Shown here: positions 45,001 to 54,000 of the stretch, one piece after another | Position numbering within the stretch: the first letter of the stretch is position 1 | Layout: every line of letters starts with the position of its first letter | NCBI GenBank assembly: GCA_038042445.1 | Contig: JBBTED010000081.1 | Span: 1 to 57,964, forward strand | Length of the DNA stretch: 57,964 nt | Reading direction: 5' to 3' | Source: Candidatus Firestoneibacteriota bacterium | GTDB lineage: Bacteria > Oederibacteriota > D2-FULL-39-29 > JBBTED01 | Position numbers: made by a program

Positions 45001-48000
45001 TTAATTTTACTTGAAAACTTTTTCATTTTTTCTTCTATTTCATAATATTTTTGTTTTGTCAAATTTTCAGGAATTCCTTTAATTACTTTTAACAATACTA
45101 AATTTTTTAATATATGCCTATCAAGAATTGCAATATTTTCACCAAACCCAATATTTCTAAGAAAATGGCTTGCTTCTTTAAATCCAATCCCCTTTACGCT
45201 TTTAACAAGCCATTCTCTTTTGTCAAAAACATTGTTAATTTTCTTAATCTTAGATTTAATATCCATCTTATCCCTGTCTACAAACAGCTTTCTTGCTTCA
45301 ATAATATAACTTGCTTTTTTATATTTAAATCGGACGCCAACTAAGTTTTTAAGGATTTGATTATATTTCCCGGTTATCAATAAATTATCTTTTACTATTT
45401 TTATAATTGCCTGCCAGCATACTTTTGCCTTAGACTGAGGTGTTAATATGCAAAATAATAACTCAGCAAATATATCTTTTTCACTACCTTTATTCCATAC
45501 ACATTTAAATTCTTCAAGCCTCGAATTAATTTCTTCTCTTTTTTTAAAATATATATTTCTTATCAATTTTATCTATTACTTTGTTTTTATATTCAGATTG
45601 TATAATTCTATTGGATTATCCCAAAACCATTTTTTTGCCATATCTAATGCTTGTGTTTCAGTGAATTGTCCGTCTTTAATTCTATTTGCTAAAACTCTTG
45701 CTATATCTTCTCTTGCCATAACTAAATGACCATACACTTTTTCTACAGGCATAGAATAATCTCCTCCAAATGCAAGTATTTTATTTGTAGGTATTAAATC
45801 TATTGCTTCATCTAAGCCAGACATAGCAAATTTTTGTGAAATTATATGTGTCCAGCAAAAATTTAACCATACATTCGGAAAACCTTTACCAAGCATAAGT
45901 GTTTCTCTTACCCATGGATACCCTAAATGGTAAATATCAAAACGAACTTTTGGATGACGTTGCAATATTGGTATCATAAGAAGTGGATCTAATTGCCTAA
46001 AATCTTCCCAATATCCTGTATGCACTGCTATAACTAAATTCTGTTCTCCTGCGAATCTTATTAACTCATCAATAATATAATCACGAAGTGAATTTGTGCC
46101 AATAAAATGTGGAGGTTGTGGTGGTATTTTATTCATACTTCCTGCTTTTATCTTTTTAAATATTGAAATTGCTTCTTGTCTATTTGGAATCTCATAAGGA
46201 TGTGACATCATTTTCAATCCAACAGCACCTTCTGATTTTTTCTTCAATATATATTTTCTGCAAGCATCCAAATAACAATCAACTGAATTTATTACCAAAT
46301 CTGGATCAAATGAAGGACGTAATATATCTATTTCAATCCTATTTCGTAATGGCATACGCAGGACTGTAGTAAGCAAATCAGTAGAAGCTGGATCAATCTT
46401 TTCTATATTATTTCTTTTATCATCCCAATATATTCCCTGGTTAAGACACGTTTTTATATTGCAGGCTTTTCGCAAAACTTTTTCATAAATACCTGGTTTA
46501 TTTGCCTTTTTTATTGCTTCAGAAATAGGTTTGTATGTGCTTTCATTTACATCAGAAAATCCATAGAATTTTTCTGTAGATATAAGAACTGCCTTAGAAT
46601 AAGATGTCCACCTGATTTTTTTCCAATATGGCGCAAACATTTTCCATCGGATATCAAGAGAAATATCCTGATTAAAAAGACTCAAATATTGTTCTTCAGT
46701 CATACCTGCCATTATTAAATCTCTATAGGTATAATGTGAAAACAAAGTAAAAACATCTACTTTTTTATTTAGCCTATCTTTTTCTGATGGTAAATGCTCA
46801 TGACAATCAATAATTTCCCATTTGGACATAGCATCAAATAAATTCTTTTCTAAATTCGATAATTTATATGTATACATAATTACTCGCCTCCTATACTTGA
46901 ATATTAGCATATATTGTATTTTTTTTCGAGTATTTTAAAAGAATAAAAACAGTTGACAATTCAACATAATTATTCTATAAATAATATAGTTACGGGAAAG
47001 ACTAAAAGAGTGGGCACAAACCCACTCTTTTACATTAGTGGTGAAAAAATAATGAGTATTGCTGAAAAAGTTAAAGCTCTCATTAAACCTATGATAACAG
47101 AAGTAGAACTGGTTGATGTTGAGTATAAAAAAGAGGGTTCTGACTGGTTTCTCAGGGTTTATATAGATAAGCCCTGTGGTGTAACTGTAGATGACTGTAA
47201 AGCTATAAGTAATACAATTGAGCCACTAATTGATGTAGAAAATATTTTGCAAAATAAATATTTTCTGGAAGTGTCATCTCCAGGCTTAACCAGACCATTG
47301 AAAAGCAAAGAAGATTTTAAGCGAAATATCGGCAAGCTTGTTGACTTGAATTTATATGCTTCAACACTTGGACAAAAGCAGTTAAGTGGAATAATTAAAG
47401 AAATAAAAGAAGAAGGTATTATATTAGAATTTAAAGATAAAAATATTCAGGAAATATTATTAAGTAATGTAGCCAAAGCTACACTTGTAATATAAATTAA
47501 AAACCGCAGGCTAAAGCCTGCGACTACCAAAAACTATGAATAGACCATTTTTAGAAGCACTTGAACAAATAGGCAGAAGCAAAAATATTGAAAAAACTGT
47601 GCTTATATCTGCTTTGCAGGAAGCTCTTATTTCTGCATCTAAAAAAACTTTTGGAACAGGACTTAATATAAGTATAGACTTCACTGAAAAAACCGGTGAT
47701 TTTAAAATATATCTAAACAAAAAAGTTGTAGAAACAGTTTCTGACCCTAATATTGAAATTTCATTAGAAAACGCAAAAATACAAAAAAGCACAATTGCTA
47801 TTGATGATACTTTGCAAGTGGAAATACCACAGGAAATGCTTAATAAAATTGCAGTCAGAACAGCAAAATCAGTTATAGTTCAAAAAGTAAGAGAAGCAGA
47901 ACGCAATCATATATTTGAAGAATTCAACAATCAAATTGGAAACATAGTAGCTAGTACTGTAATACAAAAAGAAGGTGAAGATTTTATAATTGATGTAGGT

Positions 48001-51000: not shown

Positions 51001-54000
51001 AGCGTCCTTGGAGATAATAAATCAAAAAAATCGGCAACACTTGGTCTTAAAAGCGCTACAGGATATATAAGAAGGGAAATAGGCCAAAGAGTCCGTCTAA
51101 GATTTACTCCTGAAATACAATTCAAATTGGATGAGTCTATAGAAAGAGGTGTAAAAATTTCTTCCTTACTGGATTCCATAAAAGAAAATGTGTGATATTG
51201 GAACCTTAGCCAATGTATTTGAAAAAGAAAATAACTTTTTGATATCTGCACACGTTAATCCAGATGGTGATGCTATTGGGTCACAACTTGCATTAGCAAT
51301 AGCATTAAGAAAATTAGGAAAAACAGTAGCACTTGCAAACGCCCATCCTGTACCGAATATTTATCATTTTTTACCACAATGGGATACCATAAAAATCAAG
51401 CCGGAACACCTAATACCCTCAGATGTATTTGTAGCAATAGAATGTCCTACCTTAGATAGATTAGGTTATATGAATGAACATACAAAGATGTCCAAAATAA
51501 TTGTTAATATTGACCATCACTTATCAAATGCAAGATTTGGGAAGTATAATTATGTAAAAACTTCTGCTGCTGCTGTAGGCGAACAGATATATGATATTTT
51601 AAGATTTATGAGATTTAAATTTACTCTTGATATTGCAATTTGCATATACACATCAATTCTTACTGATACAGGTTCATTTACTTATGCAAATACAACACAT
51701 ACAACACATAGAATAGCTTCAGAACTCATAAAACTTGGAGCCAACCCTACAGAAATTTCACAATATATTTATGAAAATAATTCGCTGAGTAAATTACATT
51801 TACTTGCACTTACATTACAAACACTGCAAATATGCTCTGATGGAAAAATAGCATGGGCTACATTAACAAAAGAAATGTATGAAAAAACTAAAACTCATTT
51901 TGATGAAACTGATGGATTCATAAATTATGTCCGTTCACTTGCAGGTATTAAAGTAGCAATTTTATTTAGGGAAGAACACGACAAGATAAAAGTAAGCTTT
52001 CGTTCTAAAGACAGAACTATAGATGTAAATAAAATAGCTTCTAAGTTTGGTGGAGGCGGACATTATCAAGCAGCAGGATGCACAATAATAGGCAAAATAA
52101 ATGATGTCAAAAACAACATACTTGCCGAAGTTGCCCGCAATTTATCTTAAATCAGCAAGATTTTTATCTTAACTTTTTAAATGAAATTACTTAAAAAAAA
52201 TTTCGGTTATAAAAATACTGTATGTGCTTTAGGTGCATTCGACGGTATACATATTGGGCATAAAAAAATTATCAGAGAAACAATAAAAATTGCGCATAAG
52301 TTACAGGCGAAAAGTATAATTTTAACTTTTGAACCACATCCCAAAAAAGCGCTTGCCAAAAATAATTTTCCATTATTGCTTACTCCATATTATAAAAAAA
52401 TTGACTTAATAAAAAATCTATCTCCAGATTTAGTGCTAAGTGTAGACTTCAATACAAGTTTTGCAAATATGTCCGCCCAACATTTTATAGAATTTATTCT
52501 TGTTAAAAAATTAAATATAAGGGCTATAGTTATCGGACCTAATTTCCGTTTTGGGAAAGAAAGAATAGGGAATATACAATTACTTAAAAAATTCGGGAAA
52601 TTACACGATTTTAAAGTAGTTATTGTACAACCTGCAAAAATAAATGGACAAATTATAAGCAGCACAGTAATACGAAAGTTAATCACAACAGGCAAATTAG
52701 AAAAAGCAAATATTTTTTTAGGTAGAAAATATTCAATAATAGGAAATGTAATTAAAGGTATTGGCAGGGGAAGAAAATTAGGGTTTCCAACCGCAAATGT
52801 ATCTATTCACCATGAAATTCTACCACCTTGTGGAGTCTATGCAGTCCAAGTAATTTTTAAAAATAATCTTTATAACGGTATATGCAATATTGGATTTAAT
52901 CCCACATTTATAAAGAAAAAACCAGAAAACCCAATAGTAGAAGTCCATATCATTAACAAAGTTTTTTCCAAGCCCTTATACGGCAAAATTTTAGAGATAA
53001 TATTCATAAAAAAACTCCGCAATGAAAAAACCTTTGCCAACGTCAGTGATTTAACTAAACAAATAGCAAAAGATAAAACATCCGCTTTAAAATATTTGGT
53101 CTAATTGTTGTTGTATAATTGCTTTTAAAATAGTAGAATTCGGTTAGTATTTTATGAACTAAGCTTAGCATAACTTCGTATAATATATAATTTATATTAA
53201 GAAATGCAAAATATCCTGCTCAACGAATATGCAAAAACTATTTTACGAAAAACCGCGATTTAAGCTATACCAAGCAGATTGCTTAGAAATTTTAAATTCC
53301 CTGCCTGAAAACTTGGTGGATATGATTTTTGCTGATCCTCCTTATTTTTTATCTAGTGGGAGTTTTACTTGTCAAAATGGTAAAATGGTGAGTGTTAAAA
53401 AAGGCGACTGGGATTTGACTAATGGGACGGAAAAAAATTTTGAATTTCATAATAAATGGATAAAGGCGTGCAGACGAGTATTAAAGCCAAATGGAACAAT
53501 TTGGATTAGTGGAACTTATCACTCAATTTATCAATGCGGATTCGCCTTAGAAATAAATAATTACCATTTTTTAAACGATATTGCTTGGTTTAAACCAAAT
53601 GCTTCGCCAAATTTAAGCTGTCGATTTTTTACCGCAAGTCATGAAACTTTGCTTTGGGCGAGAAAAGAAAAAAAAGGCAAGCATACTTTTAATTATGAAC
53701 TAATAAAAAATGGTGATTGGTCAGAAGATCAATTAAAAAAGCCAGGATTACAAATGCGTTCTGTTTGGTCAATTAATACACCAAAACCTATTGAAAAAAA
53801 ATTTGGCAAACACCCAACCCAAAAATCTTTTGATTTGTTAAAAAGAATTGTTTTAGCAAGCACAAACAAGGGTGATGTAATTTTAGATCCTTTTACTGGA
53901 AGCTCAACAACAGGACTTGCGTCCTATCTTTATGGCAGAAACTTTATTGGAATTGACACAGAAAAACAGTATTTAGATTTATCAATCAAAAGATTCGAAG

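Follow-up and report, generated by a model that had tools for sequence, protein, structure and literature searches.

The stretch of DNA analysed (the window) comprises 57,964 nucleotides of contig JBBTED010000081.1 from the genome under study (G000). It carries a row of genes from rimP to ribF, all on the + strand, that were identified with Pfam and NCBIfam models (Table 1). The survey's finding that this conserved row is intact except for truB, the gene of the tRNA pseudouridine-55 (Psi55) synthase, was borne out: from 46953 to 53104 the genes rimP, nusA, infB, rbfA, DHH and ribF are collinear on one strand, and each corresponds to its counterpart in relatives in identity, order and strand, truB being the only member that is missing. 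Downstream of the row is a restriction-modification pair (Pfam/NCBIfam). No remnant of truB is present in the 30-nucleotide junction between the DHH gene and ribF, and the DHH protein and RibF each align to their family models from end to end; therefore, neither contains a fused remnant of truB.

Table 1. Genes and junction of the rimP-ribF row in the genome under study.
Feature	Coordinates	Strand	Evidence
rimP, ribosome maturation factor	46953-47495	+	RimP_N 88 bits; RimP C-terminal SH3 domain 54 bits
nusA	47536-48786	+	TIGR01953 366 bits (cut-off 253)
infB (IF-2)	48783-50840	+	TIGR00487 811 bits (cut-off 424)
rbfA	50848-51195	+	TIGR00082 107 bits (cut-off 51)
DHH/DHHA1 phosphoesterase, NrnA-like (predicted)	51188-52150	+	PF01368 DHH 45 bits; PF02272 DHHA1 51 bits
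DHH-ribF junction, 30 nt	52151-52180	.	site of truB (~0.9 kb) in relatives; sequence read
ribF, bifunctional riboflavin kinase/FAD synthetase	52181-53104	+	TIGR00083 275 bits (cut-off 184)

The DHH gene encodes both of the domains by which NrnA is recognised (DHH and DHHA1), and its product scores 132.5 bits against the NrnA equivalog model NF053633, below the cut-off of 350; it is predicted to be an NrnA-like DHH phosphoesterase. The survey had described this gene as sitting where truB normally sits, which is imprecise, as relatives have the DHH gene between rbfA and truB. Among ten outgroup families sampled, the order rbfA-DHH-truB-ribF was found in four (G018, G022, G035, G053), and truB is immediately 5′ of ribF in seven, in four of which the DHH gene is immediately 5′ of truB; the truB product encoded between the DHH gene and ribF at outgroup loci is 281-328 amino acids long. 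A DHH orthologue is also located downstream of rbfA in all 11 of the other class genomes that were fetched. The order in relatives indicates that the DHH gene belonged to the row ancestrally, and that truB alone would have been excised from it in the class. The DHH gene is excluded as a stand-in for TruB because TruB-positive relatives carry it upstream of truB.

Absence of TruB from the class

The genomes compared are MAGs; those of the class are 80-98% complete and 1.7-3.0 Mb in size, and the genome under study is 90% complete. In the latter, the TruB_N domain (PF01509) had no match at E ≤ 10, with control genomes positive in 14 of 14 cases, and the NCBIfam TruB model TIGR00431 likewise had none at E ≤ 10. 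A profile made from 12 TruB proteins of the phylum, with which 14,049 stop-to-stop ORFs were searched under --max, gave a best E of only 1.8, and the best E for TruB by tblastn was 0.24. The absence of TruB_N from this genome, as reported by the survey, is thus upheld by four kinds of search.

TruB_N occurs in 81 of the phylum's 99 genomes, in none of the 13 of the class and in 81 of the 86 others; the five misses outside the class (G015, G044, G063, G085, G096) are genomes of 65-86% completeness. When only genomes at least 90% complete are counted, 54 of 60 have TruB_N, and the six negatives are exactly class members. The survey's contrast between the class (0/13) and a sample from elsewhere in the phylum (31/31) therefore persists in this larger set. 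TruA, a comparable single-copy gene taken as a control for assembly, was found in all 13 class genomes. Open reading frames of 539 and 635 amino acids in families f5 and f8, which might have been unusual TruB fusions, each consist of a normal TruB within an extended open frame.

The slot of truB is assembled and empty in all 12 class genomes in which it could be read, namely the genome under study and the 11 that were fetched. At the loci of those 11, nusA-infB-rbfA-DHH is followed by a small ORF (identified by Pfam as HU in the four genomes scanned), ribF is located elsewhere, and no match to TruB exists among the ORFs of at least 90 amino acids. An intact row ending in ribF is accordingly a feature of the genome under study and does not extend to these 11 members of the class.

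Remaining pseudouridine synthases and position 55 of tRNA

The survey counted only two remaining pseudouridine synthases in the genome under study, and the count is correct: there is one TruA and one gene of PF00849, with TruD and Pus10 absent. The product of the PF00849 gene has an N-terminal S4 domain (22.6 bits) and a PseudoU_synth_2 domain (117.5 bits), the domain composition of RluD, and scores 294.6 bits against the RluA subfamily model TIGR00005 (cut-off 192.7). Its best-scoring equivalog is RluD (NF008385), at 247.7 bits, below the cut-off of 351. By family, it is probably an RluD-like S4-domain enzyme that targets helix 69 of 23S rRNA, RluD being the synthase of Psi1911/1915/1917 in 23S rRNA, and TruA is expected to target tRNA positions 38-40. 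Neither the RluD nor the TruA family is known to include an enzyme that acts on the T-loop, which counts against a take-over of the TruB reaction by either enzyme.

Other candidates for a substitute fared as follows. A short PF00849 enzyme of approximately 240 amino acids is encoded once in most class members, and is not found in the genome under study. TruD is excluded, as none was found in the genome under study or in any of five further class genomes searched. Take-over by Pus10 is excluded for the class: TIGR01213 has no match in the genome under study, and Pus10_C (PF21238) is above its cut-off in none of the 13 class genomes, the best match (15.8 bits) having three stop codons. DUF2344 (PF10105), presumably a member of the pseudouridine-synthase clan, is present in 11 of the 13 class genomes, and in the genome under study as two split genes. 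DUF2344 and its B12-radical-SAM partner coexist with TruB in families f6 (4/4), f7 (10/11) and f13 (1/1), by which the pair is excluded as a specific hidden replacement. Among enzymes of the neighbouring modification m5U54, TrmFO was found in six of the 99 genomes of the phylum, all in families f8 and f9 and none in the class, and the sole PF05958 gene of the genome under study is RlmD, not TrmA. Co-loss of the m5U54 enzyme is excluded as a feature of the class because TrmFO is absent from most of the phylum.

Full tRNA sets, counted with aragorn run on each sequence separately, were compared between three class genomes (G000, G001, G012) and three TruB-positive relatives (G074, G032, G018). 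Position 55 is C or G in nine of the 125 class tRNAs (3/43, 2/42 and 4/40, respectively) and in two of the 130 tRNAs of the relatives (1/46, 1/45 and 0/39), an excess (Fisher p = 0.03) that is drawn from three genomes per side, related genomes not being independent. Positions 53, 54, 56, 58 and 61 are invariant across all 255 tRNAs. The C55 tRNAs of the genome under study are those for Lys-UUU, Glu-UUC and Val-UAC, each single-copy, and their codons dominate the six genes of the row (AAA 200 vs AAG 19, GAA 131 vs GAG 13, and GTA 75 of 147 valine codons). In the class, variation within the conserved T-loop has set in at position 55 alone, and it reaches even single-copy tRNAs for the commonest codons. 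Genes for tRNA-Ile(GAU) and tRNA-Ala(UGC) are missing from the assembly of the genome under study.

C55 was found in tRNA-Lys(UUU) of seven out of ten class genomes and none of 17 outgroup genomes, in a sample that is biased by having been chosen from the C55 tRNAs of the genome under study. Between G009 and its congeners G010 and G011, tRNA-Lys(UUU) differs at position 55 alone; therefore, the site flips within the class. TruB does not preclude such bases, as C55 is present in tRNA-Thr(UGU) of G074 and G032 and tRNA-Glu(UUC) of G038, and G55 in tRNA-Ile(GAU) of G013, all of them TruB-positive, so that some tolerance of bases other than U55 is older than the loss of truB. Among open-access full texts and bioRxiv preprints, nothing specific was found on natural C55 tRNAs.

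The survey had posed a choice between tRNAs that lack Psi55 and a take-over by one of the remaining synthases. Under a take-over, truB would be gone and Psi55 would still be made by a widened RluD-like enzyme, TruA, the short PF00849 enzyme or an unrecognised enzyme. The 116 of 125 class tRNAs that have kept U55 in a canonical T-loop (GTTCRANYC) are compatible with this, and the score of the RluA-family enzyme under the RluD equivalog cut-off means that homology does not settle which sites it modifies. Retention of U55, however, fits either side of the choice, since this base has a structural role as well, and the tRNAs whose genes specify C55 or G55 cannot carry Psi55 at all, essential single-copy tRNAs among them. 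The flipping of the site between close relatives argues against strong selection for Psi55, Pus10 is lacking, the absence of the short PF00849 enzyme from the genome under study leaves no class-wide substitute in that quarter, and the DUF2344/radical-SAM pair is not specific. The tRNA genes lean towards the absence of Psi55, and its continued synthesis by another enzyme is considered unlikely.

Number of losses and proposed course of events

The best explanation, with a probability of roughly 60%, is that the class ancestor underwent a single, clean excision of truB, with no gene taking its place, and that the tRNAs of the class carry plain U at position 55 or, in some species, C55 or G55. The class is monophyletic with the genome under study as its earliest branch, with support of 93/94 in a tree of InfB and 96/95 in a tree of RibF, so that one loss at the stem is the simplest reading. 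Family f5 was considered as sister of the class and could not be placed, as the RibF tree gave no resolved outgroup order. Together with the empty assembled slots and the TruA control, the two single-gene trees support the class-level loss that the survey had proposed. If there had instead been separate losses of truB in the lineage of the genome under study and in the ancestor of the remaining families of the class, the difference between their junctions (DHH to ribF in the former, DHH to HU with ribF relocated in the latter) would find an explanation; but a single loss and a later move of ribF require fewer events, both trees unite the class, and truB was kept by none of its members, making repeated loss improbable. 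The idea that TruB is present and was missed, in unassembled DNA or because it is too divergent, draws on the incompleteness of the class MAGs, that of the genome under study included, and is close to refuted by the contrast between the class and the other genomes, the assembled and empty slots, the recovery of TruA throughout the class, and the outcome of the Pfam, NCBIfam, phylum-profile and tblastn searches.

According to the preferred reading of one deletion, the ancestral row rbfA-DHH-truB-ribF would have lost truB at the class stem, no gene would have replaced it, and the class tRNAs would be without Psi55. TruB is dispensable in laboratory bacteria; this, and the probable lack of a T-loop modification network that relies on Psi55, may have made the loss tolerable. 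Such a network is not expected because most of the phylum is without TrmFO and the genome under study is without a TrmA-type enzyme. The loss of the enzyme may then have relaxed selection on U55. Judging from gene content and tRNA genes, there is an even chance that an entire class with genomes of ordinary size has a T-loop with neither Psi55 nor a known m5U54 enzyme, in which the supposedly invariant U55 is drifting, with repeated and reversible changes to C in single-copy tRNAs for the commonest codons, and in which G55 of tRNA-Ile(GAU) is accompanied by a matching change of G18 to A18.

If this reading is true, the most conserved modification of tRNA would be naturally knocked out in the class, in which three roles could be told apart: the structural one of U55, that of Psi55, and that of TruB as a chaperone. 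Each tRNA can be set against its counterpart in TruB-positive sister families, one base at a time, and the first such comparison, described above, found variation at position 55 only. Were the loss of Psi55 to be confirmed on RNA, the class would offer a natural system for establishing what Psi55 and TruB are needed for. To go by its title, a 2024 paper in PNAS (PMC11214086) reports that T-arm modifications decide how tRNA matures and functions and how fit the cell is. A practical consequence is that completeness estimates for these genomes cannot count on truB as a marker present in every bacterium.

Comparison with known systems

Relative to the canonical row of Escherichia coli, nusA-infB-rbfA-truB-rpsO-pnp, the genome under study lacks truB and has a restriction-modification pair downstream instead of rpsO and pnp. 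Relative to the form found in its own phylum, it keeps the order and orientation of rimP, nusA, infB, rbfA, DHH and ribF, with truB removed without a trace.

In the review literature, Psi55 ranks as the most universally conserved of all tRNA modifications (passages of PMC7912444). The novelty of a bacterial TruB loss as such was nevertheless overstated by the survey, as there is precedent in print. The pertinent passages of Grosjean et al. 2014 (PMC4014445) report loss of truB in three hemoplasmas, Mycoplasma genitalium and M. pneumoniae. As described there, these Mollicutes resemble the class in having lost truB at the level of a lineage, in retaining RluD (an RluD-like enzyme in the class) and in a general trimming of tRNA and rRNA modification enzymes; they differ in being host-dependent with genomes of less than 1 Mb, whereas those of the class are far from the extreme reduction (~1 Mb or less) of known TruB-less bacteria. 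The passages make no mention of which base these Mollicutes have at tRNA position 55. The Coxiella-like endosymbiont CLEAA of ticks also lacks truB, which all of its relatives carry (extract of PMC4494066). According to the same extract it is a single, strongly reduced endosymbiont genome, in contrast to the whole class considered here. Among open-access full texts and bioRxiv preprints, nothing specific was found on an earlier report of TruB loss in this lineage. The natural TruB-less lineages found in the literature are thus tiny, host-bound genomes that are losing almost everything, and a class of 1.7-3.0 Mb genomes with neither TruB nor Pus10 shows that such a loss can persist stably in genomes that have not undergone extreme reduction.

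Absence of truB from the class

The TruB gene is almost certainly absent. In G000, the genome that contains the window (2.81 Mb in 181 contigs, 90.2% complete, 2.2% contaminated), neither the Pfam model TruB_N (PF01509), which is positive in 14 of 14 control genomes, nor the NCBIfam TruB model has any match at E≤10. A phylum-specific profile of 12 TruB proteins, run unfiltered, scored no better than E = 1.8 against the 14,049 stop-to-stop ORFs of G000, and tblastn of the same 12 proteins against this genome reached 0.24 at best. The survey's finding that TruB is missing from this genome and throughout its class, and present elsewhere in the phylum, was borne out: TruB_N is encoded by 81 of 99 genomes of the phylum, comprising 0 of 13 within the class and 81 of 86 outside it, and the five negatives outside the class (G015, G044, G063, G085 and G096) are 65-86% complete. 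Of the 60 genomes with completeness of 90% or more and contamination no higher than 5%, 54 are positive; the other six are precisely the class members in this set. The single-copy gene of the tRNA pseudouridine synthase TruA, which serves as an assembly control, is present in all 13 class genomes, including those that are 80% complete.

Gene order at the truB position

The conserved row is intact in the window, as had been reported, with six collinear genes on the + strand. The accompanying claim that the DHH/DHHA1 gene sits where truB normally does is contradicted by the truB neighbourhoods fetched from one genome in each of ten outgroup families, where the order is infB-rbfA-DHH-truB-ribF in G018 (f6), G022 (f7), G035 (f8) and G053 (f12), nusA-infB-rbfA-truB-ribF in G042 (f11) and truB-ribF in G013 (f5) and G074 (f13); truB lacks row neighbours in G076, G088 and G094. 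Because DHH lies upstream of truB in relatives, it is an ordinary member of the row and is ruled out as a gene in truB's place; the order in G000 is exactly the ancestral row minus truB. DHH and ribF are separated by 30 nt, and each of the two proteins matches its own family model over its full length, which excludes a fused piece of another gene. With 132 bits against the NrnA equivalog (cut-off 350), the DHH protein would be classed as NrnA-like, below the level of a proven NrnA.

Eleven further class genomes could be read around infB (the infB contig of G005 stops too early), and in these nusA-infB-rbfA-DHH is followed by a small ORF. Where it was scanned with Pfam (G001, G007, G010 and G012), this ORF encodes a DNA-binding protein of the HU type; in the seven genomes outside that scan it is 93-111 aa long. 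There is no TruB match among the ORFs of at least 90 aa in these 11 loci. Their ribF genes lie elsewhere, and the upstream stretches fetched with them, 1-4.5 kb long, contain no row genes. Single-gene trees with few outgroups, which leave the outgroup order unresolved, recover the class as a clade (InfB, 17 taxa, support 93/94; RibF, 18 taxa, support 96/95), with G000 as its earliest branch in both and the other class families grouped together (100/100 and 98/98, respectively). Since no class member keeps truB, the simplest history would be a single deletion in the class ancestor, with ribF moving later.

Downstream of ribF, where other bacteria continue the row, the methyltransferase and endonuclease genes resemble a type II restriction-modification pair, and toxin-antitoxin genes lie beyond them. 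The Ogg-HhH glycosylase gene is upstream of the row.

Coordinates of features in the window (unprefixed) and of tRNA and other genes on other contigs (C) and fetched loci (L, positions within the locus)
Feature	Location	Strand	Remark
Ogg-HhH type 8-oxoguanine DNA glycosylase	44937-45566	-	PF22175 202 bits; NF002305 223 bits
Amidohydrolase-family gene, 444 aa	45576-46910	-	adjoins glycosylase gene
rimP	46953-47495	+	ORF listing, Pfam/NCBIfam
nusA	47536-48786	+	ORF listing, Pfam/NCBIfam
infB	48783-50840	+	ORF listing, Pfam/NCBIfam
rbfA	50848-51195	+	ORF listing, Pfam/NCBIfam
DHH/DHHA1 phosphoesterase	51188-52150	+	ORF listing, Pfam/NCBIfam
ribF	52181-53104	+	ORF listing, Pfam/NCBIfam
CcrM-like N6/N4 DNA methyltransferase	53229-54041		directly 3' of ribF
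MutH/Sau3AI-like endonuclease	54043-54687		after methyltransferase
Phd/YefM antitoxin	55230-55472		downstream of endonuclease
YoeB/ParE-type toxin	55466-55732		partner of Phd/YefM antitoxin
BrnT-type toxin	55830-56108		after YoeB/ParE-type toxin
111-aa ORF	56110-56445		after BrnT-type toxin; outside the domain scan
tRNA-Val(UAC), C55	C21:120020-120096	-	G000, outside window
tRNA-Glu(UUC), C55	C122:30070-30144	-	G000, outside window
tRNA-Lys(UUU), C55	C122:30155-30227	-	G000, outside window
tRNA-Ile(GAU), A18/G55	L213 1627-1703		G001
tRNA-Ile(GAU), A18/G55	L214 1585-1661		G012
tRNA-Ile(GAU), A18/G55	L219 1502-1578		G008
tRNA-Ile(GAU), A18/G55	L223 1501-1577		G009
tRNA-Ile(GAU), A18/G55	L232 1500-1575		G013 (f5), TruB-positive
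tRNA-Thr(UGU), C55	L197 16564-16638		G074, TruB-positive
tRNA-Thr(UGU), C55	L255 7652-7726		G032, TruB-positive
tRNA-Glu(UUC), C55	L124		G038, TruB-positive
TIGR03960 B12-radical-SAM (489 aa) and TIGR03936/DUF2344 (229 aa)	L243 1378-3517	-	G000 C47:5413-8961

Remaining tRNA modification enzymes

The survey's count of two pseudouridine synthases left in G000 holds: one TruA and one PF00849 protein, with neither TruD nor Pus10 found. The PF00849 protein (306 aa; S4 domain plus RluA-type catalytic domain) passes the RluA-subfamily model with 294.6 bits; among equivalogs it scores highest on RluD, with 247.7 bits versus a cut-off of 351. Class genomes have one to three PF00849 matches (two in ten genomes, one in G000 and G006, three in G005) and outgroup genomes one to seven, mostly three to six; the class is generally trimmed in this enzyme family.

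According to reviews (PMC7912444), Psi55 is the most universally conserved tRNA modification, TruB being the enzyme of Bacteria and Pus10 that of Archaea, and Pus10 is described there as absent from Bacteria. Pus10 is ruled out as a substitute in this class, its catalytic-domain model having no match above cut-off in any of the 13 genomes (the best, at 15.8 bits, contains three stop codons). A search of five other class genomes, those of highest completeness, found no TruD. A DUF2344 protein and its radical-SAM partner do occur in G000; they coexist with TruB in families f6, f7 and f13 and therefore are no specific substitute. The two are overlapping genes in G000 and a single ORF of 812-897 aa in other class members and in f6, f7 and f13.

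Six of the phylum's 99 genomes encode TrmFO; they belong to families f8 and f9 only, none to the class. The sole TrmA-family gene of G000 codes for RlmD (the model of RlmD gives 406 bits, that of TrmA 69). TruB is therefore the sole recognisable T-loop modifier in most of the phylum, and the class, judged by its gene content, appears to have none left. Most of the phylum is without a recognisable TrmFO-type tRNA m5U54 enzyme. TrmA and TruB are reportedly the subject of a 2024 PNAS paper (PMC11214086).

Position 55 of the tRNA genes

The target of TruB, as stated in PMC7912444, is U55 in the T-loop 53-GUUYRANYC-61. G000 encodes 43 tRNA genes, and three of them, Val-UAC, Glu-UUC and Lys-UUU, each the sole gene for its anticodon, have C55. 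Their codons dominate the six row genes (AAA 200 versus AAG 19, GAA 131 versus GAG 13, GTA 75 of 147 Val codons); G000 is AT-rich, and these tRNAs read its commonest codons. Most tRNA genes of G000 encode the CCA end and several do not. No gene for tRNA-Ile(GAU), tRNA-Ile (CAU-type, not distinguished from Met) or tRNA-Ala(UGC) is assembled in G000; the likely place of the missing genes is an rRNA operon left out of the assembly.

Full sets were compiled from Rfam tRNA matches for two further class genomes and three TruB-positive relatives, dropping one weak match (G012:C94, 31 bits) and one truncated (G001:C48); aragorn on multi-sequence FASTA overlooked tRNAs found with single sequences and -l, which makes counts from such files unreliable, and the counts given here are from single-sequence runs. 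Bases other than U55 occur in 9 of 125 class tRNAs (seven C, two G; G000 3/43, G001 2/42, G012 4/40) versus 2 of 130 in the relatives (G074 1/46, G032 1/45, G018 0/39), a difference (Fisher p = 0.03) whose significance is overstated because related genomes are not independent. Positions 53, 54, 56, 58 and 61 are invariant in all 255 tRNAs; among the conserved T-loop positions, variation is confined to 55.

In a family-wise sample of 342 distinct tRNAs, biased towards families where G000 has C55, this base was found in tRNA-Lys(UUU) of the class and outgroup at 7/10 and 0/17, Gly(GCC) 2/7 and 0/3, Val(UAC) 2/7 and 0/13, and Glu(UUC) 1/13 and 1/10; G55 in Ile(GAU) was found at 4/4 and 1/25. The tRNA-Lys(UUU) of G009 differs from those of its congeners G010 and G011 solely at position 55, and the C55 forms have three different T-stems, so position 55 has changed several times within the class. 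G18 and G19 are kept in C55 tRNAs. In tRNA-Ile(GAU) of four class genomes and one TruB-positive f5 genome, G55 is accompanied by A instead of G18 (D-loop TTAGTT versus TTGGTT), a paired change of two bases in contact with each other at the tRNA elbow.

Some tolerance of other bases exists in the phylum even with TruB present: C55 occurs in tRNA-Thr(UGU) of G074, where it is the sole gene for its anticodon, and of G032, and in tRNA-Glu(UUC) of G038. These few tRNAs, together with the A18/G55 tRNA-Ile(GAU) of G013, weaken the tRNA evidence for the absence of Psi55. U55 remains in about 93% of the tRNAs of the class, which fits both a lack of Psi55 and its formation by something else, since U55 is also structural. 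Overall, the sequences favour tRNAs without Psi55 in this class, with a probability of roughly 0.6-0.7.

Deletion of truB is tolerated, at some cost in fitness, by E. coli and other laboratory bacteria. From the earlier reading, the absence of TruB is confirmed and strengthened, with two corrections: truB was not replaced by DHH, and TruB-less bacteria are already known. Three hemoplasmas, M. genitalium and M. pneumoniae lack truB, whereas all Mollicutes retain RluD (PMC4014445), and a Coxiella-like tick endosymbiont also lacks truB (PMC4494066). A search of open-access full texts and bioRxiv turned up no earlier publication describing the loss of TruB in this lineage. What is new is the tRNA evidence, in which the target base at position 55 itself is drifting, and the setting: in contrast to the reduced Mollicutes and endosymbiont, here TruB has been lost by a whole class with genomes of 1.7-3.0 Mb and no Pus10.
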